A stretch of DNA of 64,000 nt from Naegleria gruberi (Eukaryota): the NCBI GenBank assembly GCA_000004985.1, contig GG738883.1; one strand, written 5' to 3'. The first letter of the stretch is position 1. Each line of letters starts with the position of its first letter. The notes beneath the pieces were generated by a model. The model was not told where the DNA came from. It searched no databases and saw only the letters and a list, made by a program, of their open reading frames with translations. A program made the position numbers and the translations under genes. This document shows positions 1 to 64,000 of this stretch, one piece after another.

Positions 1-293
1 ATCCATTGCTGTTTGGATGTTCAGTTTTTGGTAATATTCTCTACTCGTCATCAATTTTCCTCTTTAGTGTGAATGGTTCCTTTCTGTTGTACAAAATTCC
101 ATGGTTGACAAGTAGTTTGGTCAATATTTGTCTTGATTCTTTCATTATTGCACAATACATTTATTTCACATTCATTAAAAAGAAGCAACCACAACTAGAA
201 AACCAAAAAACCTTAGAAAATAGTGAAAAATCTAAATTGGAAATTCAAAATGAAGAAAGAATTGAGAACAAGTTGAAAGATTTAGAAGTTTAA
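1..293 (+). CDS. 3' end of a CDS that begins upstream of the window; hydrophobic C-terminal fragment, family unknown
   Basis: Frame is open from window position 1 to the TAA at 291-293 (track ORF 6..293). It has hydrophobic segments (IFLFSVNGSFLLY, LVNICLDSFIIAQYIYFTF) followed by a K/E-rich tail. No motif recognised. Confidence 0.3.
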   Translation, partial: PLLFGCSVFGNILYSSSIFLFSVNGSFLLYKIPWLTSSLVNICLDSFIIAQYIYFTFIKKKQPQLENQKTLENSEKSKLEIQNEERIENKLKDLEV

Positions 294-599
294 TGTTTCT
301 TCCTTATACTGCTTTCAAGTTTTGCAATTCCACAATACATGAACAATTCGAAATTAACATAGCATCATACCAATCATATATGCTTTGTTATCCAAAAAAA
401 CAATTCCCTCAATAAGATAATCTCTTTCAATAATAAATATGAGAAAGTGGGAAAGTTTAGTTTTTTCAAAATTCTAATTGTCTAAAGTTTTTAATGGGAG
501 TGTCTACTGTTCCAAAACCGATTCTAATATCTTCAAGTTGAGTTCATCATTTTGTTCTTCATCTCTCTTTTCTGGTATCTATTTTGACAAGAACAAAAA

Positions 600-2334
600 A
601 TGAAACAACAACGTTTATTCCTGTTTCTGATTGGTGCTATCGCTTTTATTTTACTTATTGTTTATCTACAATTTATCAACAACAAAACAACACCATCCAC
701 TTCTCACATTTCTTCTAACTCTCCTCCGACAACAACACACGAGAGAAAGAAAGTAGACGAAACTAGAAATACACAACAGGTTGTTGCAGCAGAAGAGAAA
801 GAAACTTCATCATTGCCAGGATCACACGTAAAGGAAATTAAAGTTCCAAAAATCAGAGACGATTCTTACTATGCAAGTGGTTTGAAATATTTCGATGCAT
901 TCGAAAAAACACAAAATGTTGAAGCTAAATTAGCCGACATGGACACATCCAACATGAAAGATTTAATCTTTACTACCCAATTCAATCAAAGAATGAACAA
1001 GGGACAATTTATTGATAGAAGATTCGACAAGACACTTTATACATTTTCTAATGGAAAGGTCAAGGTAAATCATCCGAATCTGAAGGTGCATGTAAAATTC
1101 TCACCTGATGAATACAAAGATGATCATCTTCACTATCCAATCTCAACAGATGCCACCATTGATAGGTATTGTATCAGAGATAGTTTCTGTCAAGGTGTCG
1201 GTCAAACAATGTGTCAATTGTGTGATTCTAAAAAACCAAAACTTGAAAGCAAATACTTTTATACTTCATGGTGTTACAAACCAAATATTGATTTTACATT
1301 GGTTTCAGTGGATAATGGTATTTTAGATTATGGAGCTCATCATGAAATTGTGAGATTTAATGTTTTTGATGCAAATGCAAATGTGTTTTCAATGCCTGGT
1401 GGAAGTCCAATTGAAATTCATAGTGGAGGATGGAGTGTTGAATATCATGCTCAATTGGGAACAATTGGTAATGTGTGGTATCCTGATGGTATGTTCTTTT
1501 CATAATCATTCTTTTTTTTAATTCATGTTTTGCATTTTGTAATCTTAATTTTTGTAAAATGTGAAAATTCAAGCTCTTGGACATTTTCCAAATGAAATTC
1601 TTTTGAGAATTGTCTTTTTACACATTCATCTCCCTCTCGACATTCCAATCATTTATCATGATGGTCCATTTGCAAACTCAATTATGGATTCTCTAATTGA
1701 GAAGGGTTTCTTCCCAAAGGAGAGAAAATTCATCAAAGCAAAGGGTTCAGTTTTTCATGTGGCCAAACGTCTCTATTTCTTCCATTCTAAAGATTATCAA
1801 CACGTTCCAATTACTCCAGATGTTGTGGTGAGAAAGAGTACCGACTATCTGAAACAATTCTTCTATGCCAATGATAATTTGATTCAAAATAATGTCCGAT
1901 TCGACAGGGAATATATTCTAATTGTCGATAGATTGGACGCTAGCTCTAGAGGTATCCTAAATCATGATGAAGTAGTATCAAAAGTCAAAGAATCAGTCAA
2001 AGGAAAGAATATTGACGTTATTTCTGCAAGATTATCCAAACGTCAATTCTTGGAAATTGGTAAAATCTTTTTTGATGCCAAGGCAATCATTGCTCCACAT
2101 GGTGCTGGTCTAGCCAACTTGGTATTTGTGAAATCTGATATTAAATTCATGTTAGAGGTTGGTTGGGTTGGTTCAGATGCTGGAGGTTACTTTGCTCACT
2201 TTTTCTGTGTGGCTAGAGCTATGGGAATTAAGTATTATGCTGTGGCTGCAACTTCTGGAACTTATGGATCACATTTTAGAGTGGATGCTGACGAAATTGG
2301 TGGAATTGTAAGAAAGGAATTTGAAAATTATTAG
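600..2334 (+). CDS. GT61-family (DUF563) glycosyltransferase, type II membrane topology; 2 exons (600..1488, 1574..2334; intron 1489..1573, GTATGT..AG, phase 1)
   Basis: N-terminal signal anchor (LFLFLIGAIAFILLIVYL), then a stem region. Exon 2 carries the GT61/DUF563 signature IIAPHGAGLANLVF followed by VGWVGSDAGGYFAHFF. The frame shifts between track ORFs 600..1505 and 1561..2334, and this is resolved by an 85-nt intron that gives ...WYPD-A-LGHFPNE. Confidence 0.6.
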
Positions 2335-2497
2335 ATTCGAATAAGATTTTAATTTTGGGGTGTTGATTTTTCATTGGATTTCAAGGTATTGTAATCGACA
2401 GAGACTTTCTAATCTCATCAAATTAGAAACGCAGTAACGAAATCTGGGTAAAACCACACATTTGTTAACTCACTCGAGTTCACAACCATTAAAAAAA

Positions 2498-3604
2498 ATG
2501 TCACCACTCAACACATCACTTTTTATTTTTTGCATCTTGGCAGTATTGACACCCACCATTTACTCTCAATATCTTGTTGTCTCCCCTTCCACCTACTTAC
2601 CAGGTCAATACTATGTTACCTTGTCCATGAACAGTAGTTCTCCAGTCAACTTGGGTCACAGCTCCAATACCCAAGCAGCATACACAACTTCAACTGGTTT
2701 CACACTGCTGAGAAGCAACATTTTGAATGGAACCTACTACTTTAGAATAGGTTCAGTTTCGTCCTCTACAGGAAATTACGTAATTTTCAATTCTGCTTCA
2801 ACATTCCAAATTTCTTACAGAATTGGTGAAAGTTTTAATAACTTTTATCCATCTAGCTCAAGCAATTCCTATTCGATTCCTGCCTATGGAACTGAGAGAT
2901 TATATGCTAGCTCTTCCTACAGATCAGGAGAAAGTTATACATTACAATTCAAATCATCCAGAACAACTTCAGTCAAGATTGCATACACTTTCAATATTGA
3001 AACTGAACCATCCTATAGTTCTTATCAAATTACTTCATCCAGATCTGCATCCATTTCCTTTACTGTTCCAACTACTTCCTCTATTTATCCAACTTTTTAT
3101 TTATATATTCAGTGTAATAATGGAATTTCAGATTGTGGAACCATTACAGTTGAGACACCAAGATCTGATGATGCTGGAATGATTATTGGAATTGTGATTG
3201 GAGTTTTCATTTTGTTTATTATCATTTCAGTTGCCATTTCAATTCCATCAGTTATTGCTGCTAAAAAGAGAAGAATGATGGCACTTGCTGCAGTCACAGC
3301 TGCTAGCAAACATGGCGATTTTGCCACCACAAATAATGCAATTGTGCAGCCAACCATGCCACCTGGAGCCTACCAACCAATGGTTCAACAAATTCCAACA
3401 ATGCCACCTGGAGCTTATTACAATCAACAACAACCATCAACCATGCCACCTGGAGCTTATCAACCAATAATGGTTCAAAATCAAATGACAGTTCAAAATT
3501 ATCAGCCCTATGTTGTGGATCCACAAGTTCAACCATATAGTGGTCAACTACAATATGGAAATCAACCAATGCCTGCATTCAATCCTAATGTAGATCGTGT
3601 ATAA
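2498..3604 (+). CDS. Type I membrane glycoprotein, paralog A: signal peptide, S/T/Y-rich ectodomain, CxxxxxC juxtamembrane loop, TM, P/Q/Y-rich tail ending PAFNPNVDRV
   Basis: Track ORF 2462..3604. The likely start is the ATG at 2498 in an aaaaaaaATG context (MSPLNTSLFIFCILAVL signal peptide). TM is IIGIVIGVFILFIIISVAISIPSVIAA followed by KKRRMMALAAVTAAS. The tail carries three TMPPGAY repeats. Confidence 0.6.
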   Translation: MSPLNTSLFIFCILAVLTPTIYSQYLVVSPSTYLPGQYYVTLSMNSSSPVNLGHSSNTQAAYTTSTGFTLLRSNILNGTYYFRIGSVSSSTGNYVIFNSASTFQISYRIGESFNNFYPSSSSNSYSIPAYGTERLYASSSYRSGESYTLQFKSSRTTSVKIAYTFNIETEPSYSSYQITSSRSASISFTVPTTSSIYPTFYLYIQCNNGISDCGTITVETPRSDDAGMIIGIVIGVFILFIIISVAISIPSVIAAKKRRMMALAAVTAASKHGDFATTNNAIVQPTMPPGAYQPMVQQIPTMPPGAYYNQQQPSTMPPGAYQPIMVQNQMTVQNYQPYVVDPQVQPYSGQLQYGNQPMPAFNPNVDRV

Positions 3605-4608: not shown

Positions 4609-5874
4609 ATGTCCACTCGAGTCAACCAACACCACTCTCTAATTTTTTACTTCCTTGTTGCTGCTGGTGTTCTTACTCTCATCCACTCACAACTTGTTGC
4701 TGCAGTAAATGCAGCCTCTGGCTACGTCTATCCGAAAAATTATCTGACTCTCAATGTGAATAGTGGTGTTTATTCCGTTTCCTTCTCATCGAGTTGTTCA
4801 CTCGTGTTGGGTTATATTTCGTACAGTAATTATAACGATCTGGACAAATTGGCAACCTCTGTTCCTTCTACTTTCACTGTAATTTCAAAGGGTACAACCT
4901 ACTATTCAAACTCGTACAGTTATTATTCCTTAGATTCGAATTATTATTTTGTACTATTTAATAATGGATCATCCAACAGTTGTTATGCTAGCACATTTAG
5001 TGTGGCTTTGGAAATGAATACTTTATCATCCTCCACTCGTTCATTTACACTTCCCTATGGAATTACAAAAACCTTTTCCAATATTTATAGTTATAATAGA
5101 TTGGTTGTTACTTCCTCCAGTAGTTCTTCAATGAGTTTGTACTACAAGTCAGACTATTCATATTCTACACCAACAACAACACCAAATAGTTTGAGTCTTT
5201 ATAGTATTTCTAGATATGGAACTGCAAATATTCCATTGAGTACTTCTCGAAGTTCTTCGTATACCTCATATGTGTATCTTTCATGTGGTAATATTGGTGG
5301 TTGTCCTGTTACTTTATCTCTTGATTCAGATGGTAGTGATTCAGGTGCATCAACTATTATTGGAGCTATTGTTGGACCAATTGCATTTGTTGTAATTTTC
5401 ACATTCATTGTAATCATTTCAGTTGTTTCAACATGTGTGGCAAGAAGAAGAAGAATGCTGATGTTGGCAGCTGCCACTTCAGCTGTTGCAACTACAACCA
5501 CTTACTCAACTCAACCAACCTATGTTCCTGTCCCAACACCAGTTTCAACCACAACAACCACAACTGAAAACACAACTGTTTATGTTCCACCACCAGTTAC
5601 AACGACAGCTCAACAACCTTATAATCCAAATCAAGGTTACATTCCTCAACCTGGTGTTCCACAACCTTATAATCCAAATCAAGCTTACTACTCACAACCA
5701 CCAACTAGTCAACCGTATCAATCATATCAACCATATCAACAATATCAACAACAACAACCAAATACTCAACCTCCACCTTATTACAATCCTGGAGTTGGTG
5801 TCTACCCAACAAACAATGTTCCAGCACAACAAGAACCAAGGCCAGCTTTCAATCCAAATGTCGATAGTGTTTAA
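4609..5874 (+). CDS. Type I membrane glycoprotein, paralog B: same architecture as 2498..3604; tail ends PAFNPNVDSV
   Basis: Signal peptide LIFYFLVAAGVLTLIHS, S/T/Y-rich ectodomain, a CGNIGGCP loop, and TM IIGAIVGPIAFVVIFTFIVIISVV followed by ARRRRMLMLAAATSAVA. The tail is rich in PYNPNQ/QPY repeats and contains a PPPYY (PPxY) motif. The C-terminal 10 residues are near-identical to paralog A. Confidence 0.6.
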   Translation: MSTRVNQHHSLIFYFLVAAGVLTLIHSQLVAAVNAASGYVYPKNYLTLNVNSGVYSVSFSSSCSLVLGYISYSNYNDLDKLATSVPSTFTVISKGTTYYSNSYSYYSLDSNYYFVLFNNGSSNSCYASTFSVALEMNTLSSSTRSFTLPYGITKTFSNIYSYNRLVVTSSSSSSMSLYYKSDYSYSTPTTTPNSLSLYSISRYGTANIPLSTSRSSSYTSYVYLSCGNIGGCPVTLSLDSDGSDSGASTIIGAIVGPIAFVVIFTFIVIISVVSTCVARRRRMLMLAAATSAVATTTTYSTQPTYVPVPTPVSTTTTTTENTTVYVPPPVTTTAQQPYNPNQGYIPQPGVPQPYNPNQAYYSQPPTSQPYQSYQPYQQYQQQQPNTQPPPYYNPGVGVYPTNNVPAQQEPRPAFNPNVDSV

Positions 5875-6163: not shown

Positions 6164-7861
6164 ATGGCTTCCACTGCACTCCGTGTTGTTTATAACAATT
6201 TGATTGAACATGTCAGAAAGTACAAGATTCTCCAATCGGTGAATGCTCTTGCTGATTGGGATGAGTTAGTCATGATGCCTCCAAAGGGTGCTGAATCAAG
6301 AGGATTGCAAAAGACTGTCTTGGCTTCTTTGACTCACGATTTGCAAACTTCTCCACTCATTGAAAAGTATCTTTCGGAATTGGTAACTACTCAAGATGAT
6401 CAAAAGATTGTAGTGAAGAATGATTCCGAATTTGATGAATATGAAATTTCCAATATTATTCTCATCCATAAGGAATTTATAAGAAATACTAAAATTACAA
6501 AGGAATTGGTTGAGAGAGCTTCTGAATTATCTAGTCGTGGATATCATCAATGGGTTGAAGCTAGAAAGAAAAGTGATTGGACCTTGTTCCAAGACACTCT
6601 CCAAGAATGGGTTAACATTCGTAAGGAAATGAGTTTGTTGATTGAACCAAATCAAAATATTGCTGATACTTTGCTTGACGAATATGATCCTGGAATGACA
6701 TGTGAACAAGTTGCTCAAGTTTTTGAAGATGTCAAGAAGGAATTGATTCCACTCATTCAAGCCATTAGAAAGAAGGTTGAAGAAAATCCAGAAAAATACA
6801 GTGATGCTTCCTTGCTTGCCAAGATTCAAGCTGGTGCAGATGAATTGTTTGATCAAAAGGAACCGTTCCCAGTTGAAAAGCAAACTGAACTCTCCAAGCA
6901 AGTAGCTCAAGAATTAGGTTTCGATTTTGAAATGGGTAGATTGGATGTCAGTGTTCACCCATTCAGTACTTCATTCTCAACCAATGATGTCAGAATTACT
7001 ACCAGATATAATACTAAGGAATTCGTTAATGGTTTGGGTATGTTTTTTTGATGAATTATTGAAATTTATTTACCACATCATTTGGATAATTTGATTATCA
7101 TCATATAATTTACATTATCTTATTCTTGAATAATTACAGCTGGTACTGTACACGAAACAGGACACTCACTCTATGAAGCTGGTCTCAATCCACTCTATGC
7201 CTATCAACCAGTTCAATCTGCTCTTGGTACTACCATCCACGAAAGTCAATCCTTGTTCTGGGAAAGACATGTTGGTTTGAGTAAGGGATTCTGGAGAAAG
7301 TGGTTGCCAGTTGCTGAAGAATTGTTCCCATACTTGAAGCAAAAGAAATTGAGCGTTGATGACATTTACAGATCTGCCAATACTGTCACCCTCAATAACT
7401 TTATCAGAATTGAAGCTGATGAATTGACCTATCCAATGCACGTAATTCTTAGATTTGAAATAGAAAAGGGATTATTGGATGGATCAATCAGTGTTGCTGA
7501 TGTTCCAAAAGTTTGGAATGCCAAAGTTAAGGAATATTTGGGACTTGATGTTCCAAATGATGCTAAGGGTGCTCTCCAAGATGTCCACTGGAGTTCAGGC
7601 GCTTTTGCCTATTTCCCAACATATCTTCTTGGTGCTATGGCCTCTGCTCAAATCTCTGCATCCATTCCAGATTTTGAAAAACACATTGAAGAAAATAACT
7701 ATGCCTTCTTGAAGAATTGGTTGAATGAAAACATCCACAAGAGAGGTACTGTTACATTGACCTCTAACAAGTTGCTTAAGGAAGCTACTGGTTCTGAATT
7801 GAATCCAAAGATCTTTGTTAACTATCTCAAGACTAAATACAGTGCTCTCTATGATCTTTAA
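6164..7861 (+). CDS. Metallocarboxypeptidase, peptidase family M32 (carboxypeptidase Taq-like); 2 exons (6164..7037, 7140..7861; intron 7038..7139)
   Basis: M32 N-terminal region (LADWDELVMMPPKGAESRGLQKTVLASLTHDL). The HEXXH zinc motif HETGHSLYE and the downstream IHESQSLFWE motif sit just after the splice junction (...NGL-A-GTVHETGH...). Distal conserved block DVHWSSGAFAYFPTYLLGAM. Confidence 0.8.
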
Positions 7862-8027: not shown

Positions 8028-8696
8028 ATGATTAGAAGAGCTTGCTCCATTTGTGCCGGTGTCAAACCTGTCAAATTTACAAGCTTCTCCCTGATACCTC
8101 GTTTCATACATTCAGCATCGGAACGACATTTTCATGTAAATCTAAATGCACAAACAAAAGATACTTACCTTCATCTGATGCAACGAGATTATGAAAAACC
8201 AACCTTTTCCACACTCAATATTACTATCCAAGATTGCAAAGAATGGAAGGAATTGGAATTTTTCAAGGCCATGGGTAGAACCATTCCAAGAGGAGGAGCT
8301 GGTTTAGCAAGAGGCGAATTGGAGATACTCCTCAAATCTAGGGAGGTTATGAATCCTATTGATGGTGAATTTCTCATTAAAGTTTCACAAGTTTTGGAGA
8401 AGAAAGGTTCATATGCAGCTAGAAAATATGTGGAATATGAATTGAGAACTGATCCAACAATTGCTAAAAAGATTGTTGATTGGGTAGAAGAGAAATCGAA
8501 AAGAGATGATACAAGTGGAGGTGGTGGAGAAGTAATTACCGATACTAGCTCACCAAATATTCCTCCCAGAGAACGAAAGGAAAAGGAACAAGAAACTTAT
8601 GACGATGAGCAGGAATGGATTGATGATTTTGGTGGAGGATTGGATGGTGGTGATGGTGGTGGTGATGGAGGGGGTGATGGTGGAGGAGGTGATTAG
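8028..8696 (+). CDS. Hypothetical protein with a basic N-terminus resembling an organellar presequence and a C-terminal (GGGD)n low-complexity tail
   Basis: Single 222-aa ORF starting in an aaaaaaaATG context. No family recognised. The C-terminus is GGGLDGGDGGGDGGGDGGGGD. Confidence 0.4.
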   Translation: MIRRACSICAGVKPVKFTSFSLIPRFIHSASERHFHVNLNAQTKDTYLHLMQRDYEKPTFSTLNITIQDCKEWKELEFFKAMGRTIPRGGAGLARGELEILLKSREVMNPIDGEFLIKVSQVLEKKGSYAARKYVEYELRTDPTIAKKIVDWVEEKSKRDDTSGGGGEVITDTSSPNIPPRERKEKEQETYDDEQEWIDDFGGGLDGGDGGGDGGGDGGGGD

Positions 8697-8846: not shown

Positions 8847-9687
8847 ATGCCAAAGAACAATGCACCTTTCATGATTAAGGTGCAGTTAGGAAATAAAAAG
8901 TCAGGAGTGGTTGTGGATCCTAGTCATGAATTTTCTAGTTTTGCTCTTCATCAGGTTTTACATTTTACTTCAGAGCAACGTTTGTTTGTCAAGGTTTGTT
9001 GTTATTGTAGTAACGAGTTGATTCATCAAGTTTATCATCATTTCACCTTATTTCATATTGAAAATTGTTGTATGGAATTGATGATTTGATTTAAATGTGG
9101 ACCATTCAATAATATATTTAGGTTTTGGCTCTTGAGGATGAGGAAAATAAATTGAGGATTTGTTTTCATCATGATCCGAACATTAGAATGGGAACTTACT
9201 TGATGAAGGAACAATTGATTAATGATTTAAAGCCGAACAAGGTTTATACACTGATTATTCAGGATACTAGAGATGTAAAAGTGGAAGATCTAACAACAGA
9301 GGAATTGGATGAAATCAAACGACTGTTCGATGAAATGGATAAAGGTAGAGTAGTTATTAATAACAACTCTTAAGGAAAACTCTAATGTTTGAAAATGTAG
9401 ATAAATCTGGATGTATTTCACTATTGGAAGTCAAGAACTTTTACAAAAATGAAATGGAAATCAATATGAGAGTGAGTCGTAAAGTTGCCGATAGAAAGAT
9501 TCAAAAACATGTAATATTTAGAGAAAGATATGAAAAGGACTATGAAAATGATTGTAAATTTTTCAAATCCATCATGGACAGTAACATTTCTCATTTTATG
9601 CAACAGGATACAGATAATAATTCACGAGTTACATGGGATGAATTTTTGAAACATCAAGCAAAGGTTAAAATTTCACAACGAAGATAA
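8847..9687 (+). CDS. EF-hand calcium-binding protein; 3 exons (8847..8993, 9122..9344, 9401..9687)
   Basis: Three track ORFs in different frames join through GTTTGT..AG (phase 0) and GTAGAG..AG (phase 1) introns. The second junction reconstitutes a canonical EF-hand loop, DKDKSGCISLLE. A second canonical loop, DTDNNSRVTWDE, lies in exon 3. Confidence 0.5.
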
Positions 9688-10200: not shown

Positions 10201-11950
10201 ATGATGCGTTCCTCTTTACAACAATCTGTTCAAAAGATTTCATCCTTTTCCAAACTCATGGGAAGAAACAATATTTCTGCCTGTTCGTATGGTATTAACA
10301 ATATTCCATTCGAAAAGAAGGTTATGGATGCCAAGACTGCTCTCACTTCGTTCATCAAGGGAGGAAACAGAGTTTTCGTTCAAACTGGTAAGTGTTTTTG
10401 AAGCATTGTATGGAGTTTGTATAATTTTGAATTGTTTTACTGTACTATTATTGCCACTTGTTTGTATTCCGGAACTGATGATTCAATTCCAATATATATT
10501 TACATATTCGTCATCTTCATTATCCACTTTTTGATTTTCATCATCAATTCATTACTGTTTATATGAATATAATTATTATATTAAAATTCAAAAGGTTGCA
10601 ACGTTCCAAAGCACCTTATCAAGAGTTTGGATACACTCATCGATGAAAAGGAAAAGACCTTTGCCGATAATAAGAAGAGAATTGAATTCGTAGGTCTCCA
10701 TATTAACTATTATCCAGGAGAACAACCACCACACATGAGTGGTAAAAATAGAGAATACTTCCACACAAATGCCATCTTTAACGGTGCTTCGGAAAGAGCT
10801 GGTATGAAAGATAGAAGTGGTGAAGAATTACCACTTGTCGATTACTTGCCAATCTTTTTGAGTGAAGCTCCAATTTTGTTCAAGAGTGGTAAATTCCCAC
10901 TTGATGTTGCTTTGATTCAAGTTTCCCCACCAGATAGCCACGGTTATTGGTAAGTACTAGTATAATTTGAATTTTGTGAAATAATTATTACCTTAATTAG
11001 TTCACTTGGTGTCTCTGTCGATATTTCCTTGTCTGGTGTTCAATCTGCTAAATATGTCATTGCTCAAATTAACAAGAATGTCCCAAGAACTCACGGTGAT
11101 GGTTTCATTCACATTTCTCAAATTGATGCTTTCGTTAAGCATGACGAACCACTTTCTGAAATTCCATGTAATATTCATGAACTTGATGAAGTTGACAGAA
11201 AGATTGGTGAAAATGTTGCTCAATTGATTCCAGATAGAGCTTGTTTGCAATTGGGTGTCGGAAGTTTGCCAAATGCTGTTTGTGCTGCATTGACAAATCA
11301 CAAGGATATTGGTATCCACACTGAATTGATGTCTGATGGTGTTTTGGAATTATTCAAGAAGGGAGTTGTCACTAACAAGTATAAGGGAGTTCACCCTAAT
11401 GAAATTTTGTGTACTTTCGTCATGGGTTCAAGAAACATTTACGATTTCGTTGATGACAATCCACAAGTCATTTTCAGAGGAGCTGACTTTGTCAATGATA
11501 TTAACAATATTAAGCAAAATAAGAATATGATTGCTGTCAACAGTGCTATTGAAATTGATTTTACTGGTCAAGTTTGTGCTGACTCTATTGGTACCAGAAT
11601 GTACTCTGGTGTTGGTGGTCAAGTAAGTATTTAAATAGTTCAATAATAATTTATGCAATATTTAGATGGACTTTATGGTAGGTTCAGCAAAGAGTGAAGG
11701 TGGTAAGCCAATTATGGCCATTCCATCCCTTACATCAAATGGTGAATCAAAGATTGTCAATACTCTCAAGGAAGGTGCTGGTGTCGTTACTACAAGAGCT
11801 CACGTTCACTATGTCTGTACTGAATATGGTATTGCTGAATTGTATGGTAAGAACGTTGTTCAAAGAGCTAAGGCCTTGATCAGTATTGCTCACCCAATGC
11901 ATCGTGAAAGATTGACTTTTGAAGCTAAGAAACGTTTCGGTTATTTCTAA
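10201..11950 (+). CDS. ACH1: Acetyl-CoA hydrolase/transferase family protein (ACH1-like succinyl-CoA:acetate CoA-transferase) with an N-terminal organellar targeting presequence; 4 exons (10201..10387, 10595..10949, 11001..11622, 11666..11950)
   Basis: Four track ORFs are linked by GTAAGT introns in phases 1, 2 and 0. The junctions give conserved family blocks: ...HGY-C-SLGVSVD..., GVGGQ|MDFMVGSAKSEGGKPIMAIPS. The presequence is MMRSSLQQSVQKISSFSKLMGRNNISAC. Confidence 0.85.
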
Positions 11951-12075: not shown

Positions 12076-13089
12076 ATGTCTGAAGAAGAAATACAACAAA
12101 TATCATCATCGGAGGAAAATATTACAACAGATGAAGAAGAAAAATCCTTGGAAGAATTAGAACAACAACTTGCTCAATTTAATGAACAATTACAACAATG
12201 TATTTTACTTTCCGAACAAGAACCAGAATCAACTGAATATTCATCACTGATTGAAGATTTACAAAATGCCATCAATTTGACAACGGAATTAATTAATATT
12301 AAATTATCGGAACAACAACAGACTCATAGTAATACAATTGTGGAATCTGCAGTACCATTATATCAAGAGGGAGATTATTGTTATGGTCTTTATGAAGGTT
12401 TATGGTATGTGGCTGTTGTTACTAAAATCATAGATAACACCAAAAAGCTTGCCGAGTCAAGCATCAAGAAACCTTCTTTTGAATATTTAGTTAGATATGT
12501 TGGATATGGAAATTCTGAATTTATTTCAAAAGAAAGATATACCATTAAGGATTATTCACACCCTCCAACTGAATATTTACAATCAGGATCTAAATGTCTT
12601 GCTGTCAATGCCAATGATCCTGATGGACTCTATGAAGATGCCGTTGTTGATAAATTGACAGAAAAAGAAACGGTTTGGGTCACATTTAAGGAGAGAGGAA
12701 TCATGCAAGAAGTTCCATTAAGACTGATAAGACTTGCCTCTGATCATTTCTATGATCCAAAATTCAAACCAAAGAAATTCAAAAAACCAGAAACCACAAG
12801 CAATACTACCACTGTTGCTTCTACTGCTGCTGCAACAGCCATCACCCAAGAAAAGAAGGAGCAAGCTGAAATTATTGCCAAAAAGAAAAAGAAGCAAGAA
12901 AAGAGACAAGCCAAACAAAAGGAAGAGGAAAAAAACATTAATGAAAGAAAACAAAGTTGGCAATCCTTCAAGAATAAGAACTCTGGTAATTACAAGAATA
13001 CTGGAAAGACATTACAATCCTCAGAAAAGACCTTCACTCCCGCCCAAAAGAAAACCAAACATTCACACCCAACTAGTTCTCAACAATAA
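12076..13089 (+). CDS. SPF30/SMNDC1-like Tudor-domain splicing factor
   Basis: N-terminal coiled coil (LEELEQQLAQFNEQLQQ). Tudor-like core YQEGDYCYGLYEGLWYVAVVTKI ... YLVRYVGYGNSEFISKERY. The K-rich C-terminal tail (KKKKKQEKRQAKQKEEEKNINERKQSWQSFKNKNSGNYKN) follows the SPF30 pattern. Confidence 0.55.
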   Translation: MSEEEIQQISSSEENITTDEEEKSLEELEQQLAQFNEQLQQCILLSEQEPESTEYSSLIEDLQNAINLTTELINIKLSEQQQTHSNTIVESAVPLYQEGDYCYGLYEGLWYVAVVTKIIDNTKKLAESSIKKPSFEYLVRYVGYGNSEFISKERYTIKDYSHPPTEYLQSGSKCLAVNANDPDGLYEDAVVDKLTEKETVWVTFKERGIMQEVPLRLIRLASDHFYDPKFKPKKFKKPETTSNTTTVASTAAATAITQEKKEQAEIIAKKKKKQEKRQAKQKEEEKNINERKQSWQSFKNKNSGNYKNTGKTLQSSEKTFTPAQKKTKHSHPTSSQQ

Positions 13090-13364
13090 ATTATTCATCA
13101 TCATCGCCTAAGAAGAAGTTTAAAACTGCATTAGAAAAATTGAAACTCTTCTCGTTAGCTAGCTCCCTAACTCATTCACACAACGATGTGATTGGAGAGT
13201 TGTGATTACTTGAAAAATTGAAGCGAAACGGTTTTGTAAGCATCTCCAAATCAGCAAAATATTTTAAAAATAAAAAATCAAATTTAAAAAAAAATCGAAC
13301 CAAGTGCTAGGCTGCCCTACATTTCTTCGAGAAAAATAAACTCCTAGATTTATACATCATCACC

Positions 13365-16109: not shown

Positions 16110-16283
16110 ATAAATTAAACATTTATTCTCTGAAAACAATTGCCTCAATACTATTCTTTTGTAAACTAAATTTCAATACGAGCAGTCTACTATTACAGTA
16201 CTGAATATTCAACGTATTTCCCTCCAATAGGCCACTTAAAGCGACAAGAAAAAAATCAACCCAACAGACATCCTTTTTTCATC

Positions 16284-34512: not shown

Positions 34513-34668
34513 CGGCAAATTATTAATAATTTCATCACCTACATCAGTATGGTCGCTTAGTTCAGTCAAACAAGTCAATGAAACACCTACTCAATTTTAT
34601 TGAGACAAATTACTAAAATCACTAAGGTTTCGTTCATGCTCAAGTGACTTATTAAGGAAATAATTGAT

Positions 34669-46444: not shown

Positions 46445-48614
46445 TCATTCTTTAAGCATGCATGAATTGGTTTTCAAGTGGAAATCCCATTGCTTTTCAG
46501 TTCTGGTAATTGCATTGCCCAAAATTGTTTTAGTTTGAGTTTGAAGTGCTGCAATATACTTGTCCTTAACTTCCTTCTCGGAGGTGTTGGCATTTGCCTT
46601 CTTTGCTGCTTCTGAGCTGATCATTGATTCATCTAAAAAGCCAGCTGTATCAAGGAACTCAGTCATTGCTCCCATTAATTGATCGTACATAATGGATCTT
46701 CTAATCTTGGTTTCAAGTTTGGCAGTTTCTCTTTCAATATATTCAACCTGTTCCTTATCTAAAACTCTCATTAATTCTAACAAGACCACGAGGAGAGTGT
46801 GTCTCTTCTCATCCTCTGTAATTTGTTGCACAAGTGCCCTCAATGAGAAGAGAGAATAATCCCAAACAGTATTCGATTGTTGTAAAATGGTTGCTGCGTT
46901 TGTGTACAAACAATGGAAAGCATGTAGTAAATCTTCAGAAATGGAGAATGTTGTTACTTCATGATACAAGTGCTTGTTTCTTTCCACAAACTTTTCTCTC
47001 AGTAGATCAACCTTTATCTTTCTCATTTCGTCTCTATTGTCTTTTGGTGGGGCTGGTTCAGGTAAGTTATCAATCACTCTTTCTACTATATCATGCATTA
47101 CAATGTAAACTCCATTCTCCTCCTCCTTCTCTACAAAAGGTTCCAAATCCTGTTGTTCCTCTGAAATTACTACTCCTTTCAATTTTACCTCATCACAATC
47201 ACAATAAGCCTTTGGAATAGTTTCCAATTTAAATCCATCAGTAAAAATTCCTTCCATATCAGACTCGAATGAAAAGACAAACTTTTTGGTTTTTTGAGGA
47301 AGCAATATTCCCTTTCCTTCTGTAGAAAGCATAAATTTGGATTCAGCCCTCTTCTTTTGAAGTGATGTAATTGGCTCAACCTTAACCCATTTGTATTGGA
47401 TTGAGCAGCATCCTGTATTTTCAAGAACAACCTCCTTTTGAACCAATTCTCCTGGAATGGCATCAAAAAGAATATCATTTTCCGATAATTGAAAAGCAGG
47501 AGCTTCCATCTCTTCTTTTGCTTCCTCTTCCTTAATTTCGTATGGAAGATGAGAAGCAGAATATGTTTCCTCTTCGTCATATGTATTGTACTTTTCCTCA
47601 ATCTTTTGACCAATAACCTTCAGTTCTTCAATAAGAGAAGAGGGATCATGGGTTAGTTCCTTAGCTAATAGTTTTCCATATTTCTTTCTGAAATAGATTT
47701 AGAAATTTCGATTCAACCAGGGTACTTACTTTACATAGTCTGATTTCATTGACCTAATTCCCAAAGGTGTGTTATCCCTAATTAAACGTTCCAGTACATC
47801 TCAAAAACAATAGACAACTTACTCTGCAATAAATCTATCAGGATTTCTCACAGTAGCTGGCTTTCTAATTTTTTTCTCAATAATAGGACAAAACAAAGGA
47901 TATGGATAATTTCCAATTTTAACATATCTCACTCCATCGTCCTCAGGTACATCTACAATAACTTAAGTAAATGAAAAACATTAATACTAACTTCTAAGAG
48001 ATAATTCCCAACTCCATTCGTTGTGACGTTTTTCTACTGGAATGGAAGCTTCCAAAATATCTATTTCCTCTCTTTTTGCTCTGAATGCATCTTGACTTTC
48101 CATCACCAAAGAAGTTTTTGGCTATTATCCTCAATAAAACATTCAATCCCCAACCTACCTTTCCTGTTTTATTTGCCAACCGTTCTCCAATATCCCCCCA
48201 AGTTTGCAAATATTCTTCATACTTTCTGAGGGCCTTCTCTTGCATAAATTGTCTTCCTACTGCCTTATCGTCATGAATTGTTTTTTCCAACTTTTCCGAA
48301 AATTTTGGTTTTGTATTTCTAGAACTTTCCAAATTTTGCTTCATTCTCTTAAACGATTCATTATTAGCCTCCACATTTGAACACAATGATCCAGAACTCT
48401 GCAGTGTTGATTGAAGTTGTGATCGACTCATTGCAGTCATGTACTGATCCAATGATCCTAAAATTTCAATCTCCGATTTTGGAAGACGAGAAGCATCAAA
48501 TAAATTCGGAACCATACTAGGCTCCATTCCTGGTTCAACATTAGATAAATTCATCTCCATTGGAACCTCAACCCTTGGAGGTAATTGAGGAGCAGACTCT
48601 GGTTGTGGTGTCAT
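46445..48614 (-). CDS. ASH (MSP-like) domain protein, possibly MYCBP-associated protein (MYCBPAP/AMAP-1)-like, about 668 aa; 5 exons (48614..48159, 48121..47992, 47952..47823, 47777..47730, 47687..46445)
   Basis: Track ORFs 47994..48614 and 46445..47509 are linked through three micro-exons by introns of 37-45 nt (donors GTAGGT, GTTAGT, GTAAGT x2). The ASH-type beta-sandwich signature is FQLSENDILFDAIPGELVQKEVVLENTGCCSIQYKWVKVEP. The family call is tentative. Confidence 0.45.
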
Positions 48615-56344: not shown

Positions 56345-58858
56345 ATGGTCAAATTCAGTATTGATGAAATCCGTAATATTATGGACAAGCAACCACAAAT
56401 CCGTAATATGTCTGTCATTGCTCACGTCGATCACGGTAAATCCACCTTGACTGACTCCTTGGTTGCTGCTGCCGGTATTATTGCTCAAGCTAATGCTGGT
56501 CAACAACGTTTCATGGATACCAGAGATGACGAACAAGATAGATGTATCACCATTAAGTCTACTTCTATCTCCCTCTACTATAAGAAGCCAGCTGAAGATG
56601 GTACTGAAACTGAATATTTGATTAACTTGATCGATTGTCCAGGTCACGTTGACTTTTCATCTGAAGTTACTGCTGCTTTGAGAGTTACTGACGGTGCTTT
56701 GGTCGTCGTTGATGCCGTTTCTGGTGTCTGTGTCCAAACTGAAACTGTCTTGAGACAAGCTTTGCAAGAAAGAATTAGACCTGTCCTCATGATGAACAAG
56801 TTGGACAGAGCTTTCCTCGAACTCCAATTGCAACCTGAAGATGCTTATACCAACTTTAACAAGGCTATTGAATCTGTTAACGTTGTCATTTCCACTTATG
56901 ATGATGGTGGTTTCGGTGATCCACAAGTTTACCCAGAAAAGGGTACCGTTGCTTTCGGTTCTGGTCTCCATTGTTGGGGTTTCACTTTGAAGAGATTCGC
57001 CAAGATGTACGCCAAGAAATTCGGTGTTGCTGAAGAAAAGTTGATGAAGAAATTCTGGGGTGATAACTTCTTTGATGCTGCTAACAAGAAATGGGTTAAG
57101 GACTCTCAAGGTGGTAAATTGGTCAGAGGTTTCTGTCAATTCGTCTTGGATCCTATTTACAAGGTTTTCCACTCTTGTATCAATGATGATAAGCCTCTCC
57201 TCGAAAAGGTCTTGCCAGTTTTGGGTATTACATTGTCTGCTGATGAAAAACAACAAAAGGATAAGAAGTTGATGAAGTGTGTTATGGCTAAATGGTTGCC
57301 AGCTGCTGAAGCTCTCTTGGAAATGATTGTCACTCACTTGCCTTCACCAAAGGTTGCTCAAGGTTACAGATATGAACATTTGTACAACGGTCCACTCGAT
57401 GATAAGTATTGTCAAGCTGTTAAGAATTGTGATCCTAATGGTCCATTGATGATGTACGTCTCTAAGATGGTTCCTACTAACGATAAGGGTAGATTCTATG
57501 CTTTCGGTAGAGTTTTCGCTGGTAAGGTTAGAACTGGTCAAAAGGCTAGACTTATGGGTCCTAACTTTGAACATGGTAAGAATACTGACTTGTTCGATGA
57601 TAAGACTATCCAAAGAACTGTCGTTATGATGGGTCGTTATACTGAATCTGTTGATGATATTCCTTGTGGTAACGTTGCTGGTTTGGTCGGTGTTGATCAA
57701 TTCTTGATCAAGACTGGTACTATCACTGATTCTGATTGTAAGGATGCTTGTCCATTCAGAGATATGAAGTACTCTGTTTCCCCTGTCGTCAGAGTTGCCG
57801 TCGAACCAAAGAATCAAGCTGATTTGCCAAAGGTTATTGAAGGTATGAAGAGATTGGCTAAGTCTGATCCTTTGGTCGTCTGTACTATCAATGAAGAATC
57901 TGGTGAAAAGATTATTGCTGGTGCCGGTGAATTGCACTTGGAAATTTGTTTGAAGGATTTGAGAGACGATTTCTGTGGTGGTATTGAATTGAAGATTTCC
58001 GACCCAGTCGTTGCTTTCAGAGAAACTGTTTCTGAAGCTTCCCCATGTGATACTTTGACTAAGTCTCCAAACAAGCACAACAGATTGTACATGAATGCTG
58101 AACCACTCCCAGAAGAAATGCAAGATGATATTGAACAAGGTAAAATTACTGCTAACGATGAAGCCAAGAAGAGAGCTAAGTACTTGCAAGACCAATACGG
58201 TTGGGATCAAGACCAAGCCAGAAAGATTTGGTCATTCGGTCCAGACCAAACTGGTCCAAACTTGATGGTTGACGTTACCAAGGCTGTCCAATATTTGAAC
58301 GAAATTAAGGACTCTGTCAACTCTGGTTTCCAAATTGCTGCTAAGGAAGGTCCACTCTGTAATGAAACATGTCGTGGTGTTAGATACAACTTGACTGATG
58401 TTACTTTGCACACTGATGCTATCCACAGAGGTGCTGGTCAAATCTTGCACACTGCCAGAAGAGGTTGTCAAGCTGCTCACTGTAACTCTGCTCCAAGAAT
58501 TTTGGAACCAATCTTTTTGGTTGAAATCCAATGTCCTGACTCTGTTTTGGGTTCAGTCTACTCTGTCATGAACAGAAGAAGAGGTACAATTGATCAAGCT
58601 ATCCAAAGACCAGGTACTCCAATGTTCAACGTTAAGGCTTACCTCCCTGTCTTGGAATCATTCAACTTCTCCACCTTCTTGAGATCTGAAACTGGTGGTG
58701 AAGCTTTCCCACAATGCGTTTTCCACCATTGGCAAATTGTTGGTGGTGATCCTTGGGATAAGACTTCAAAGATCAGAGAATTGGTTGTTGATACTCGTAA
58801 GCGTAAGGGTTTGAAGGAAGAAATTCCAACCGTCGAAGAACTCTCCGACAAGTTGTAA
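56345..58858 (+). CDS. EFT2: Translation elongation factor 2 (eEF2), single exon, 837 aa
   Basis: G-domain motifs [17 protein letters not shown] and NKLD. The diphthamide-region is [18 protein letters not shown]. Codon usage is highly biased (GGT, GCT, AAG, TTC, TTG). Confidence 0.95.
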
Positions 58859-59498: not shown

Positions 59499-59572
59499 TA
59501 CAGCGAGCGGGGCTTGAACCCGCGACCTTAAGCGTGTTAGGCTTACGATCTAACCAACTGATCTATCGCTGC
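59499..59572 (-). tRNA. tRNA-Val (anticodon AAC)
   Basis: Minus-strand GCAGCGATAGATCAGTTGGTTAGATCGTAAGCCTAACACGCTTAAGGTCGCGGGTTCAAGCCCCGCTCGCTGTA. Anticodon stem TAAGC/GCTTA with loop CTAACAC. T-arm GCGGG-TTCAAGC-CCCGC. There is a G1-U72 wobble in the acceptor stem and a 3' T-run. Confidence 0.75.
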
Positions 59573-59763: not shown

Positions 59764-62480
59764 ATGTCGACAACAAGTCACTTCAGTGATGAAAGTCTGC
59801 ATGATGATAATTTATTTGCAGAACATCCGATGGGAATTTATGATCAAGAAGAAAATCTTTACAAACACCAGCAACAAATCTATCGACCACTGAAGAAACT
59901 TTCCTCCACACAATTATCCACAGTTTACCTTTGTGAGAATTCTAATGGAAAACTTGTTGTATTAAAAGTTGCATCCTATGAAAATGAACAAGATACCATC
60001 GAGTGGAATCCGAAATTAGTTGAAGAATCGAATAGACTACATACACAATATCTACTTTATATTCTGGATGTTTTTACAGTGGAAAAAACCAATGGGAAAT
60101 ATTTGTGTGTAGTTTCCGAATATTGTGAGAATGGGAGTTTAGCAACAAGTATTGATGCTTTGCGTAAATCAATGAATGTTTCGTTATTCCTTCAGATATT
60201 ATTTCAAATGTTGCGTGCTTTGGATGCTCTTCATTTTGGTCTGTTTGTTCATGCTGATGTGAAGTTGGATAATATATTTGTGAGGAAATTTGATAGAAAT
60301 AGAGTATTTGTGGTATTGGGAGATTTGGGTTTAAGTTCCAAGATGGATTTTACTGAGGAGGAATTGTCTCAAAATTGTATTGATGTAGATAATGAACTGA
60401 CAACAGTCACTACAGGAGAAATTGGAACCTTTTCGTATAGAGATCCAATAATAATGAAACGAAGAAAAGTGTATTTCAAAAGTGATATTTGGAGTTTAGG
60501 TATGTTTCTCTTTTTTCTATTTGAGAATTGAACCTAATTTCTAAAGGAATAACTTTATTGAAATTGATATCAAGAGACGAAATGCCCAATTTTGAATCGA
60601 CAACAACAGAAGAAAGACTCAACACCATTCGACAAATATTTTCCCATTTTGAGACTGAAAAAAAAGAATGGGAAGTTTGTCAGAATATTATTGAACGAAT
60701 GTTAGTGGAAGATGTTACAGAGAGAGCAACTATTTCAGAAATTCGTTTAATGATTTATTCTACAACTATTGATGACTCATCATTTGAAAACAATTACCAA
60801 CATTTAAGGGAGGAATTCAAATACAACAGATCTGTAATTATTAGCTGTCTAAATGCAAAGGGAAGCATTTTACAACATGTACCTGATGCATTTCATTTCA
60901 ACAGAAAAATTGTAATGGAAGCAATTCACAATAATCCAAGCGCTTACCAATACATCAAAGGATACTTGAAATACCAACCATATATTGTAAACGCAGTTAT
61001 AGAAAGAGATCCATCTGTTCAAGTACCAGTTCATTTGGTAAAAGCTCCTTCACATTACGTTGCTAATAGCATTATCATTGAGCTTTCGGAACAAGAGAAG
61101 AATGACAAAGGGTTATTTATGGAAATTCTTGAAAGAGATGGTACGAGTTTAAAAGATGCCTCTTGGGAATTGAAAAATGATAGAGATTGTGTTATAAAAA
61201 GCGTAACACAGAGAGGAATTTCATTACAGTTTGCCTCAACTGATTTACGAAATGATGGAGAAATTGTGAGAATAGCTATTTCACAAAATGGAATGGCCTT
61301 AGAGTACGCTCATCCATTATTAAGACAAAGAGAAGATATTGTGATGAAAGCTGTTTCACAAAATGGATTGGCACTTCAATTTGCTTCAATAGAAATGAGA
61401 AATAATCAAAGAGTTGTGGAAAGGGCTGTATTGTCTGAATATACAGGCCAATTATTGTTTCTGATTGGTGAGGAATTGAGAAGTGACGTATCGTTCATGG
61501 TAAGATTGCTTAGTCTTAATCAGTTATTGTTTTTTCAATATTTGTTTTCTTTTGGAGAAGAATCTTTCAGAAATCTATGTGATGAGTATCAACATGAGGA
61601 TCAGTTTATTTGGTGTCTCAATGGATTGTTCGGCATTTTCGAAGATAACATTAATGGAGCACTGAAATATTTTCAACTTGCTGCAGAAAAAGACAATGCG
61701 TCTGCTGAACACTTCCTCGGTATAATGTACCATAAAGGACAAGTTGTGGAACAGGATTTTTGTAAGGCTTTTGAATGGTTTGGTAAATCAGCTGAAAAAG
61801 GATATCCAGAAGCTCAATTCTCGATTGGGTTAATGTATTATCACGGAGAATATGTTTCAAAAAATAAGGAAAGAGAATTTTATTGGATTTATAGAGCTGC
61901 TGAGCAAGGACATGTTAAGGCTGAAAGTTCTATTGCTTGTCTTTATTATGCTCAGGAAGAATATTCCAAATCATTTGAGTGGTATTTGAAAGCAGCTGAA
62001 AAAGGAGATTCAGATTCTCAATTTGAAATAGGTTCACTGTATCACAAAGGATTGGGAATACCAAAAGATTTTACAAATGCCTTTAGTTGGTATTCGAAAG
62101 CTGCAGAACATGGTCATTCGAAAGCTCAAAATAATATTGGAGTATTGTATCAAACAGGACAAGGTATTCCACAAAATTATTCCAAAGCACTTGAATGGTT
62201 CATGAAATCAGCTGAGAATAATGATACAGATGCCATGAATTTTATTGGACTGATATATCAAGAAGGCCAAGGAGTTCCACAAGACAACATCACAGCATTC
62301 GAATGGTTTCTAAAAGCAGCCGAATGTGGCAATGTACAATCTCAAATACTTGTCGCTACCATGTATCATCATGGTATTGGAGTGGAGCAAAACTTGTATG
62401 ATGCACTGAAATGGTATGAAAAAGCTGCAGGAGGAACTCAGAATAATTCAAAAGCTGATTCCAAAGAAATTGAGAATTGA
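59764..62480 (+). CDS. Degenerate protein-kinase (likely pseudokinase) domain fused to DUF4116 repeats and C-terminal Sel1 (TPR-like) repeats, about 890 aa; 2 exons (59764..60499, 60547..62480)
   Basis: The kinase-like region has a degenerate Gly loop, VLKVA in place of the VAIK lysine motif, HAD in place of HRD (LFVHADVKLDNIFV), and DLG in place of DFG. A GTATGT..AG 47-nt intron (phase 1) joins to DUF4116 repeats (DREIVLKAV/QNGxALQFAS pattern). About 8 Sel1 repeats follow (AQxxLGxxYxxGxGVxQDxxxAxxWxxKAAExG). Confidence 0.7.
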
Positions 62481-62929
62481 GAATTGATTACAACAAATAC
62501 TTCATTCAGAATAATTATATTTTAATTGTTCAAAGATTTATTGAATATAATTATCACAGTAGTTGGTTTTTACTCTTGTAGTATGGCGTGTAATTATCAA
62601 TCAGAATTATTTCCTCAATTACATTGTTGCAACTCCACCACACCCAATGCTCTTCCTCCAATGTTGTTGATCCATTTGTCAATTACAGAACATGCACCCT
62701 TATTTTCTCGAGAAAACTTCAATAATTTAAGGATTCTTTGCCAATGTTGTGTTAGAAGTACCACCTGCTGGAGCACATGATAACTGAAATTAAGTAATGG
62801 ATCATGTTAAGAGAAATTATTGATTATCAAACATAAACTTGAAATATTCAAATTCCAATAACAGTTTATTAAAAATCTTGCAATTAAATATCTGTGAAAT
62901 AAATATTGCTGACAGGACCTAATATTGGC

Positions 62930-62937
62930 TGACGTCA
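62930..62937 (+). promoter_or_regulatory. Perfect CRE/ATF palindrome TGACGTCA about 90 bp upstream of the GT13 gene start
   Basis: ggcTGACGTCAaaagtcacc. Only one occurrence was noticed in the window. Confidence 0.2.
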
Positions 62938-63026
62938 AAAGTCACCACACAAAATTCGCTTCAAAAAAAATTAACCATCAACTCAACGACGATATCATCT
63001 CTGGCTACTAGTAGTAATATAATTAA

Positions 63027-64000
63027 ATGATATCAAAATTTAGTATTCGAAATATAGCCATATTTATCTGTGGTGCATTATTATATGGTTTAATAACTGT
63101 ATTTTTATATCGTGCTGTATTTAATTCTAATAGTATTAGTGGAAATAAACTTTCTAATAGTGAAACTTCATCAGGTAGTGGAAAACATCATCATACAAAT
63201 AATAATCAACATAAACAACAAGAACAAACAACAATTAATGAAATTAAAAATCCTTTCGAATACTTTTTACCCACCAAAGATTCTATTAAAATGATGTCAA
63301 TTCCGCACAAGGATTCACAACCAAGTCTTGAAGAAATGAAATCAACACAATCAAATCAATGTGGTTCAACAGTTGGTAATACAGTTCCTGGAAGAGGGAA
63401 GAGAAGTGAAAATTTTGATTGGCCAAATTTTTCACCATCAAGTTTTAATATTGAAACTGATTTTAGAAAGTGGAAGAATGAAAGTATTGAATATTGGAAG
63501 AAGGTTTCTAGTAATTTGAATGGAGATTTATTGAATGATGAAAAATTAAAGATGAATGAAATGGGATTAACTTTAAATTCTCATTTGAAACCTAAAGATG
63601 GACATTTACCTATTTGGTTGAGAGTATTTAAGAGAAGAACACCACTTGATATTTCACTAGCAGCCATTTGTAAGATTGATGATATTTCTGATACAATTTT
63701 ATATGTTACTGTTGATGGTGGTGATTTTGATCCAGTTTTTGAAGAATTGGAGAAGGTTACTTGCGTGAAAGTTAAAATTTATTTCCATCCAATTTTGAGT
63801 GATTTGAAAAATTTAGGTTTAGGTGAAAGAAATTTAGACAATTCACTCACTCTAAATTCACATTACGTTTATGGAATGTATCTACTCACTCAGAAACTTA
63901 ATTATCCCTATGTGATTACAATTGAAGATGATTTGGAAGCTAGTCCTGATTTTTACAGATATCACTACAGTTTATATCATTTAGTTTATGGAAAGAATGC
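63027..64000 (+). CDS. GT13-family N-acetylglucosaminyltransferase (GnT-I/MGAT1- or POMGNT1-like), type II membrane protein; 5' portion only, CDS runs off the window end
   Basis: Open frame from the ATG at 63027 to position 64000 with no stop (absent from the track because it is unterminated). N-terminal signal anchor IAIFICGALLYGLITVFLY. The catalytic block YPYVITIEDDLEASPDFYRYH matches the GT13 EDD motif (VVVEDDLEVAPDFFEYF). Confidence 0.55.
   Translation, partial: MISKFSIRNIAIFICGALLYGLITVFLYRAVFNSNSISGNKLSNSETSSGSGKHHHTNNNQHKQQEQTTINEIKNPFEYFLPTKDSIKMMSIPHKDSQPSLEEMKSTQSNQCGSTVGNTVPGRGKRSENFDWPNFSPSSFNIETDFRKWKNESIEYWKKVSSNLNGDLLNDEKLKMNEMGLTLNSHLKPKDGHLPIWLRVFKRRTPLDISLAAICKIDDISDTILYVTVDGGDFDPVFEELEKVTCVKVKIYFHPILSDLKNLGLGERNLDNSLTLNSHYVYGMYLLTQKLNYPYVITIEDDLEASPDFYRYHYSLYHLVYGKN

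Follow-up and report, generated by a model that had tools for sequence, protein, structure and literature searches.

From which organism does the 64,000-nucleotide stretch of DNA shown above come, and how far can composition and gene content alone lead to the answer? The whole stretch, referred to here as the window, had been read in a preliminary description, made without database searches, as part of the compact AT-rich genome of a flagellated, mitochondriate microbial eukaryote with non-fungal gene content. Two candidates were left standing, a heterolobosean-like amoeboflagellate and an early-diverging zoosporic lineage. The overall statement and the first candidate were correct, and the source can now be resolved to the strain, Naegleria gruberi NEG-M, on the evidence of the proteins that the window encodes.

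Source organism of the window

Proteins encoded by the window were identified by exact-sequence look-up in a collection of 15 billion proteins, and homologues of the Tudor open reading frame (ORF) discussed below were searched for in a collection of 5.8 billion. Fifteen of the proteins are the same as deposited N. gruberi NEG-M proteins over their full length and at every residue, and all fifteen lie on one contig of 371,401 bp. Two further proteins are 100% identical over 98-99% of the ORF. The genes concerned are as follows (nt, nucleotides; aa, amino acids).

600-2334, plus strand: GT61 glycosyltransferase, two exons (600-1488 and 1574-2334) separated by an intron of 85 nt (GTATGT..AG); Pfam Glyco_transf_61 7e-16; spliced product is EFC41790/D2VMT2
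2498-3604, plus strand: Ser-rich single-pass membrane protein ending PAFNPNVDRV; exactly EFC41791/D2VMT3
4609-5874, plus strand: Ser-rich single-pass membrane protein, paralogue of the preceding, ending PAFNPNVDSV; exactly EFC41792/D2VMT4
6164-7861, plus strand: M32 (Taq-type) carboxypeptidase, two exons (6164-7037 and 7140-7861) separated by an intron of 102 nt; Pfam Peptidase_M32 3e-59 and 1e-70; spliced product is EFC41793
13365-16109, plus strand: AP-1 beta-adaptin, intronless, 914 aa; exactly EFC41797/XP_002674541; Pfam Adaptin_N 3e-156
23741-24460, plus strand: RapZ-like protein consisting of the C-terminal domain only, with an acidic insert; Pfam PF22740 2.1e-15; PDB 5o5s (C-terminal domain of E. 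coli RapZ) 8e-4; exactly EFC41799
25011-25586, plus strand: predicted protein with a Thr/Ser-rich tail; exactly EFC41801
25677-26813, plus strand: F-box and SPRY-like protein; 100% identical to NAEGRDRAFT_70264, 378 aa (one of the two partial-length matches)
26999-27376, plus strand: L51_S25_CI-B8 domain protein of mitochondrial type; Pfam 1.7e-06; exactly EFC41803
30175-30567, plus strand: ribosomal protein uS8 (S15a), intronless; Pfam Ribosomal_S8 1.2e-23; exactly EFC41804
30744-31541, plus strand: SNARE (V-SNARE_C); Pfam 1.3e-11; exactly EFC41805
36411-36779, minus strand: ribosomal protein eL34, intronless; Pfam 2.7e-29; exactly EFC41887
40222-40923, plus strand: ATP23 (M76) mitochondrial inner-membrane protease; Pfam 1.8e-46; exactly EFC41807
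48737-49723, minus strand: zinc-type alcohol dehydrogenase (ADH)/quinone oxidoreductase-like protein; Pfam ADH_zinc_N 1.3e-12; exactly EFC41891
49900-55479, minus strand: kinase-like, BEACH and WD40 protein of the WDR81/GFS12/LvsG family, 1798 aa, three exons; Pfam; NAEGRDRAFT_80587 (the other partial-length match); exons mapped by tblastn
56345-58858, plus strand: elongation factor 2 (EF-2), intronless, 837 aa; exactly EFC41809/XP_002674553; Pfam
59764-62480, plus strand: kinase with four DUF4116 and six Sel1 repeats, 889 aa, exons 59764-60499 and 60547-62480; Pfam; spliced product is EFC41810/D2VMW1

Approximately 8,300 residues thus correspond to NEG-M proteins without one mismatch, and these include fast-evolving low-complexity proteins. 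The exact matches carry UniProt accessions (D2VMT2 to D2VMW1) that rise monotonically with position along the window, from which we infer that they follow gene order. The window is almost certainly a 64-kb segment of the nuclear genome of N. gruberi NEG-M, holding the genes D2VMT2 to D2VMW1 and a partial gene at each end. The segment was therefore already known: the NEG-M genome was published in 2010 and is annotated in GenBank, RefSeq and UniProt, and no biological discovery is made by naming it.

The housekeeping proteins and the less conserved ones lead to the same place. A taxonomic search with EF-2, beta-adaptin, uS8 and eL34 had been proposed as the check on the preliminary description, with consistent top hits in Dikarya, Metazoa or Viridiplantae as the outcome that would overturn it; all four are those of N. 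gruberi itself. The 90% identity clusters of EF-2 and uS8 name only Naegleria species, together with one Spironema transcriptome entry in the case of uS8, while the eL34 cluster contains N. gruberi only and that of AP-1 beta has N. gruberi as its single member. The next-nearest sequences all belong to Heterolobosea, at 64-70% identity for N. lovaniensis and N. fowleri, 50% for Willaertia magna and 38% for Acrasis kona. For the Tudor and WDR81-like proteins, which are not universal, the nearest relatives are again Naegleria and Willaertia, with Acrasis in addition for the Tudor protein. The NCBI lineage of N. gruberi is Eukaryota; Discoba; Heterolobosea; Naegleriidae.

Several points count against an assignment to the strain itself. 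The assignment is made at the protein level, through identity over the approximately 8,300 residues. Eight ORFs or spliced models lack an exact deposited counterpart; NELF-B, ADH, Tudor, F-box/SPRY, ATP23 and RRM are those without an exact match when read from the first ATG. Two of the eight, the ADH-like protein and ATP23, match exactly from the second Met instead of the first ATG, and for the remaining models differences from the deposited gene models are the likely cause. Finally, a contig of 3,773 bp in a public metagenome of the European Nucleotide Archive (ENA; ERZ929261, run ERR1078381) is 99.26% identical in DNA to positions 12802-16583, with 17 mismatches and three gaps, and encodes an identical AP-1 beta-adaptin. 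This contig comes from a close N. gruberi-type strain or haplotype, and because its AP-1 beta is unchanged despite the DNA divergence, one identical protein is no proof of strain; fifteen are.

That contig also shows that close relatives exist in public data, and it is the point in favour of a source in another Naegleria species or in a divergent strain of the N. gruberi complex rather than in NEG-M. Such a source is very improbable. Orthologues in N. fowleri and N. lovaniensis reach no more than 64-70% identity; the two Ser-rich proteins and EFC41801, which evolve fast and are of low complexity, match the NEG-M entries at 100%; and at a DNA divergence of 0.74% approximately 8,300 residues would not all remain identical.

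Strain NEG-M also has to be set against the second candidate, an early-diverging zoosporic fungus or another flagellated opisthokont. Zoosporic fungi (Chytridiomycota and Blastocladiomycota) resemble the source organism in being flagellated and mitochondriate, in having flagellar gene sets and in that they may be AT-rich, so that a chytrid-like organism would also be compatible with CFAP70, MYCBPAP, NEK and an AT-rich compact genome; in addition, the matches to the WDR81 family include Mortierellomycota. Against this, the exact and the nearest matches are all heterolobosean, the window has no near match to any fungal protein, its housekeeping proteins are not nearest to those of fungi, and the best fungal approach is to the conserved BEACH core only, at approximately 50% identity over 22% of the query. 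Since every closest relative found is heterolobosean, the zoosporic candidate is excluded, and no weight is left on it.

Gene content and the names given to the genes

The remaining features of the window are listed below.

3-290, plus strand: open frame that extends beyond the window start and is probably a 3' gene end; ORF only, no Pfam match
8028-8696, plus strand: ORF with a Gly/Asp-rich tail; no Pfam match; exact sequence not among the deposited proteins
9122-9687, plus strand: multi-exon gene for an EF-hand protein; Pfam EF-hand_7 7.6e-05
10201-11950, plus strand: acetyl-CoA hydrolase/transferase family protein (acetate:succinate CoA-transferase-like), four predicted exons; Pfam AcetylCoA_hyd_C 5.7e-24 and AcetylCoA_hydro
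12076-13089, plus strand: double Tudor-like protein, 337 aa, earlier named SPF30; heterolobosean homologues; synteny with N. fowleri FDP41_012832
16284-18200, plus strand: amino-acid transporter (Aa_trans), at least two exons; Pfam 6.8e-13; syntenic in N. fowleri
18223-21186, minus strand: NELF-B/COBRA1, a single ORF of 987 aa; Pfam COBRA1 3.7e-37; N. fowleri orthologue also uninterrupted
21412-22817, minus strand: three-exon gene, N-terminal transmembrane segment, GSSMG motif; ORFs and GTAAGT..AG junctions; no Pfam match; absent at the N. fowleri position
27630-29435, minus strand: RNA-binding protein with PWI and two RRM domains, 3' end may be spliced (candidate donor at 27689); Pfam RRM_1 3.6e-21 and PWI
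31601-33859, minus strand: Armadillo-repeat (Arm) protein, four predicted exons; Pfam Arm 1.8e-56
34668-34760, plus strand: tRNA, probably Leu(AAG), long variable arm, intron of 11 nt; ARAGORN, and Rfam 48.3 bits
35142-36227, plus strand: Lys/Glu-rich coiled-coil ORF, 5' exons likely; no Pfam match
37163-40020, minus strand: MIF4G and MA3 protein (NOM1/Sgd1-like), at least three exons; Pfam MA3 4.9e-20 and MIF4G 5e-05
41396-43929, plus strand: CFAP70 (flagellar), at least two exons, with a predicted 50-nt intron and 5' exon(s) that may lie upstream; PDB 9ijj and 7n61
43945-46267, minus strand: NEK-family kinase, five predicted exons; PDB NEK1 1.3e-103
46445-48614, minus strand: MYCBP-associated protein (MYCBPAP) family, multi-exon; Pfam PF14646 2.6e-18
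59499-59572, minus strand: tRNA-Val(AAC); ARAGORN, and Rfam 66.9 bits
63027-64000, plus strand: GT13 (GNT-I-like) glycosyltransferase, incomplete at the window end; Pfam GNT-I 4.6e-06, 26.1 bits

Most of the gene names given in the preliminary description hold at the level of the family. Pfam supports GT61, M32, NELF-B, DUF4116 (four repeats), Sel1 (six repeats), EF-2, beta-adaptin, uS8 and eL34, and the COBRA1 domain of NELF-B scores 128.6 bits against a Pfam cut-off of 22. CFAP70 is borne out by a match to the cryo-electron microscopy chain 9ijj_k (5.9e-66) and to Chlamydomonas FAP70 in 7n61 (2e-30); the best matching stretch, query residues 46-258, lies upstream of the TPRs and thus outside the generic TPR region. 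The kinase named NEK does match NEK1. The WDR81-like protein has Pfam Pkinase, Beach and WD40 family domains in that order, and its homologues carry the names WDR81, GFS12 and lvsG. The GT13 assignment also stands, at a score close to the cut-off of 25.4 bits because the window ends within the gene.

Two names were more specific than the evidence. The Tudor ORF has two Tudor-like blocks and an Acrasis homologue labelled 'splicing factor', and SPF30 is supported at the level of domain architecture only. The SPF30 Tudor domain 4a4f matches weakly (E 1.4 for the sequence by itself, 0.44 for a profile), no Pfam family was matched, and searches of PDB and Pfam with single sequences or small family profiles gave no significant support for SPF30. 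The FBXO45-like protein is comparable. An F-box is matched weakly (E 0.004-0.05), SPRY is found by Pfam (4.9e-11) in one of four distant homologues, and the top PDB matches are all SPRY proteins at E of approximately 0.1. The F-box and SPRY architecture, but not orthology, is in this way supported indirectly. Pfam and PDB searches with single sequences or small profiles gave no significant support for FBXO45. The deposited protein starts at Met9 of the window ORF.

The name 'Sel1-pseudokinase' is not borne out. In the kinase domain of the DUF4116-Sel1 protein (59764-60499), HAD-VKLDN and DLG align in register with HRD-LKTQN and DFG of the NEK in the window, and the Lys of VLKV can be read directly. 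The catalytic Lys, the HxD Asp, the Asn and the DxG Asp are all kept and only the GxGxxG Gly-rich loop is absent; judged by these residues, the kinase may well be active.

Another way to read the locus is that gene content by itself, before any database identity is used, sets the organism apart from animals, plants and fungi. This is doubtful as a general claim, even if the families it leans on (CFAP70, NELF-B, GT13/GNT-I and M32) are present by Pfam or PDB searches. CFAP70 and NELF-B are not known from Dikarya, nor GT13/GNT-I from most fungi; the M32 family is mostly prokaryotic, and rare and patchy in eukaryotes. Taken singly, however, each family is widespread. Land plants (GFS12), Amoebozoa (LvsG) and early fungi (Mortierellomycota) all have members of the WDR81 family; NEK, SNARE, adaptin and EF-2 are universal; and the DUF4116 and Sel1 repeats offer no taxonomic resolution. 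Only the combination carries the inference, and the non-fungal markers put forward in the preliminary description are weaker one by one than was implied. Even the combination could not separate the two candidates: it pointed in the correct direction, and it is database identity that separates Heterolobosea from zoosporic fungi and leads to NEG-M. The words 'flagellated' and 'mitochondriate' were well chosen, as flagellar CFAP70, MYCBPAP and the NEK1-like kinase fit the former, and ATP23, the L51/S25/CI-B8 protein and the acetyl-CoA hydrolase/transferase the latter. The gene set as a whole is a mix of flagellar, mitochondrial and 'ancestral eukaryote' functions.

The value of the exercise may lie in the calibration of such inferences. 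A heterolobosean amoeboflagellate was recognisable from composition and gene content alone, without searches; set against this are introns that turn out to be common, a codon bias that depends on expression, some over-specific names and a WDR81 family that is not restricted to a lineage.

Two genes merit separate mention. The Tudor ORF begins in an AAAAA-ATG context and ends with TAA. Apart from a single unnamed ENA sequence, its matches all come from N. fowleri (65%), N. lovaniensis, Willaertia and Acrasis, and the search of 5.8 billion proteins yielded none from N. gruberi. In N. fowleri the gene adjoins AP-1 beta, as it does in the window. This double-Tudor gene may be missing from the NEG-M annotation, or mis-modelled in it. 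RapZ is a bacterial small-RNA adaptor whose C-terminal domain binds small RNA in E. coli. In the RapZ_C-like protein EFC41799 this domain is split by a long acidic insert, the segment CCHKGKHRSV resembles GCTGGKHRSV, and there is no P-loop N-terminal domain; a PapZ_C gene is found at the syntenic position in N. fowleri. It is tentatively suggested from these sequence comparisons, as a joint proposal with the odds rather against it, that the Tudor gene is missing from the NEG-M set and that 23741-24460 encodes a true homologue of the bacterial RapZ C-terminal domain. If so, an otherwise bacterial RNA-adaptor domain would stand alone in a eukaryote and be conserved across Naegleria species.

The adjacent genes at 2498-3604 and 4609-5874 encode lineage-specific Ser/Thr/Tyr-rich proteins with Pro/Gln-rich tails and the common end motif PAFNPNVD(R/S)V. 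The two proteins are weakly similar around the transmembrane segment (BLASTP 2e-06), neither belongs to a Pfam family, and the genes are probably a tandem duplicate. The tRNA at 34668-34760 received no name from ARAGORN in default mode. Ile(AAT), given by the intron mode with a non-canonical intron position, was rejected on account of the long variable arm; Leu(AAG) is preferred because it accommodates this arm and the intron then falls at the canonical position 37/38.

Introns, composition and codon use

Introns in the window are short, with GTAAGT or GTATGT donors and an AG acceptor, and interrupt approximately one third of the genes. An intron was counted as confirmed if the spliced product is the deposited protein or if the deposited protein maps in pieces. 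Five fall in this class: those of the GT61 gene (85 nt), the M32 gene (102 nt) and the kinase-DUF4116-Sel1 gene (47 nt), and two in the 5' part of the WDR81-like gene. Splicing of the M32 intron restores the HETGH zinc motif. For the WDR81-like gene a single 348-nt intron was considered and rejected, as tblastn of the deposited protein resolves a small middle exon between two short introns.

Breaks in the ORFs of the CoA-transferase, NEK, Arm, CFAP70, MIF4G/MA3 and MYCBPAP genes and of the gene at 21412-22817 predict further introns, of 39-207 nt. The hand-built spliced models of the CoA-transferase, the three-exon gene, NEK, the Arm protein and CFAP70 are not identical to any deposited protein, and their introns therefore stay predictions. 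The statement that big genes are intronless is correct for EF-2 and AP-1 beta, whose ORFs are the deposited proteins, and for NELF-B with its single ORF, but fails for the largest gene of all (WDR81-like, with two introns) and for the 889-aa kinase-DUF4116-Sel1 gene, and probably also for CFAP70 and MIF4G/MA3 with their predicted introns.

The window has a GC content of 34.2%, with values of 31-38% among 4-kb bins, as expected of an AT-rich genome. Long ORFs lie densely on both strands, and Pfam, PDB and homology searches place most of them in ordinary eukaryotic families. Approximately 34 protein-coding genes, of which two are incomplete at the window ends, and two tRNAs were counted, that is one gene per 1.8-1.9 kb; in the deposited annotation an unbroken series of 30 UniProt accessions (D2VMT2 to D2VMW1) covers the 61.9 kb between 600 and 62480, one per approximately 2.06 kb. 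The genome is compact as described, but the figure of one gene per 1.7 kb was slightly too dense on either count. The A-rich ATG context, AAAAA-ATG, is confirmed: A occupies each of positions −5 to −2 in 19-23 of 25 starts, against 32.5% A in the window. All three stop codons terminate ORFs (TAA 25, TAG 3 and TGA 3), and the deposited C-termini coincide with the TAG of the GT61 and SNARE genes and with the TGA of the kinase-Sel1 gene; the code is thus the standard one and, in line with the exclusion of ciliates, the source is not among the organisms with reassigned stops. Asn/Gln-rich tracts are likewise present, for example 20 of 30 residues in the N-terminus of the WDR81-like protein.

Codon use was only partly as described. 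In EF-2 the preferred codons reach fractions of 1.00 (GGT), 0.84 (GCT), 0.86 (AAG), 0.85 (TTC) and 0.78 (TTG), and AP-1 beta and the two ribosomal proteins, uS8 and eL34, are similarly biased. Across all ORFs GGA (0.47) is about as frequent as GGT (0.45), TTT (0.57) exceeds TTC (0.43) and AAG reaches only 0.57; the WDR81-like gene has little bias. The GGT/GCT/AAG/TTC/TTG bias is therefore tied to the level of expression and is not general, and translational selection would be its presumed cause.

Comparison with the NEG-M and Naegleria fowleri genomes

The traits described here (34% GC, tight packing with short spacers, short introns in a minority of genes, the AAAAA-ATG start context, a standard code with TAA preferred and a codon bias that sharpens with high expression) are all normal for NEG-M. 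The genome of this strain (ATCC 30224) has 35% GC, genes of 1,677 bp on average and 57.8% coding sequence, and its 40.9 Mb with 16,620 genes amount to approximately 2.5 kb per gene (PMC9928731, Table 1). The window resembles it in its short introns, standard code and GC content (34.2% against 35%), but is denser, with approximately 1.9 kb per gene as opposed to 2.5 kb, and with approximately 69% of bases in long ORFs compared to 57.8% coding.

N. fowleri and N. lovaniensis share the 90% clusters of EF-2 and uS8 with the window, whereas their non-housekeeping proteins are 64-70% identical. On N. fowleri contig VFQX01000016.1 (GCA_008403515.1) there are several differences in gene content: the three-exon gene (21412-22817) between NELF-B and RapZ_C is absent, a single gene of 214 aa between WDR81-like and NEK replaces the ADH-like and MYCBPAP genes of the window, and upstream of Tudor, where synteny breaks, COQ7 and an Ank protein take the place of the CoA-transferase and EF-hand genes of the window. 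Around these differences order and orientation are kept in two blocks, the first consisting of Tudor, AP-1 beta, Aa_trans, NELF-B (on the minus strand) and RapZ_C, and the second of EF-2, WDR81-like, NEK, CFAP70, ATP23 and MIF4G/MA3.

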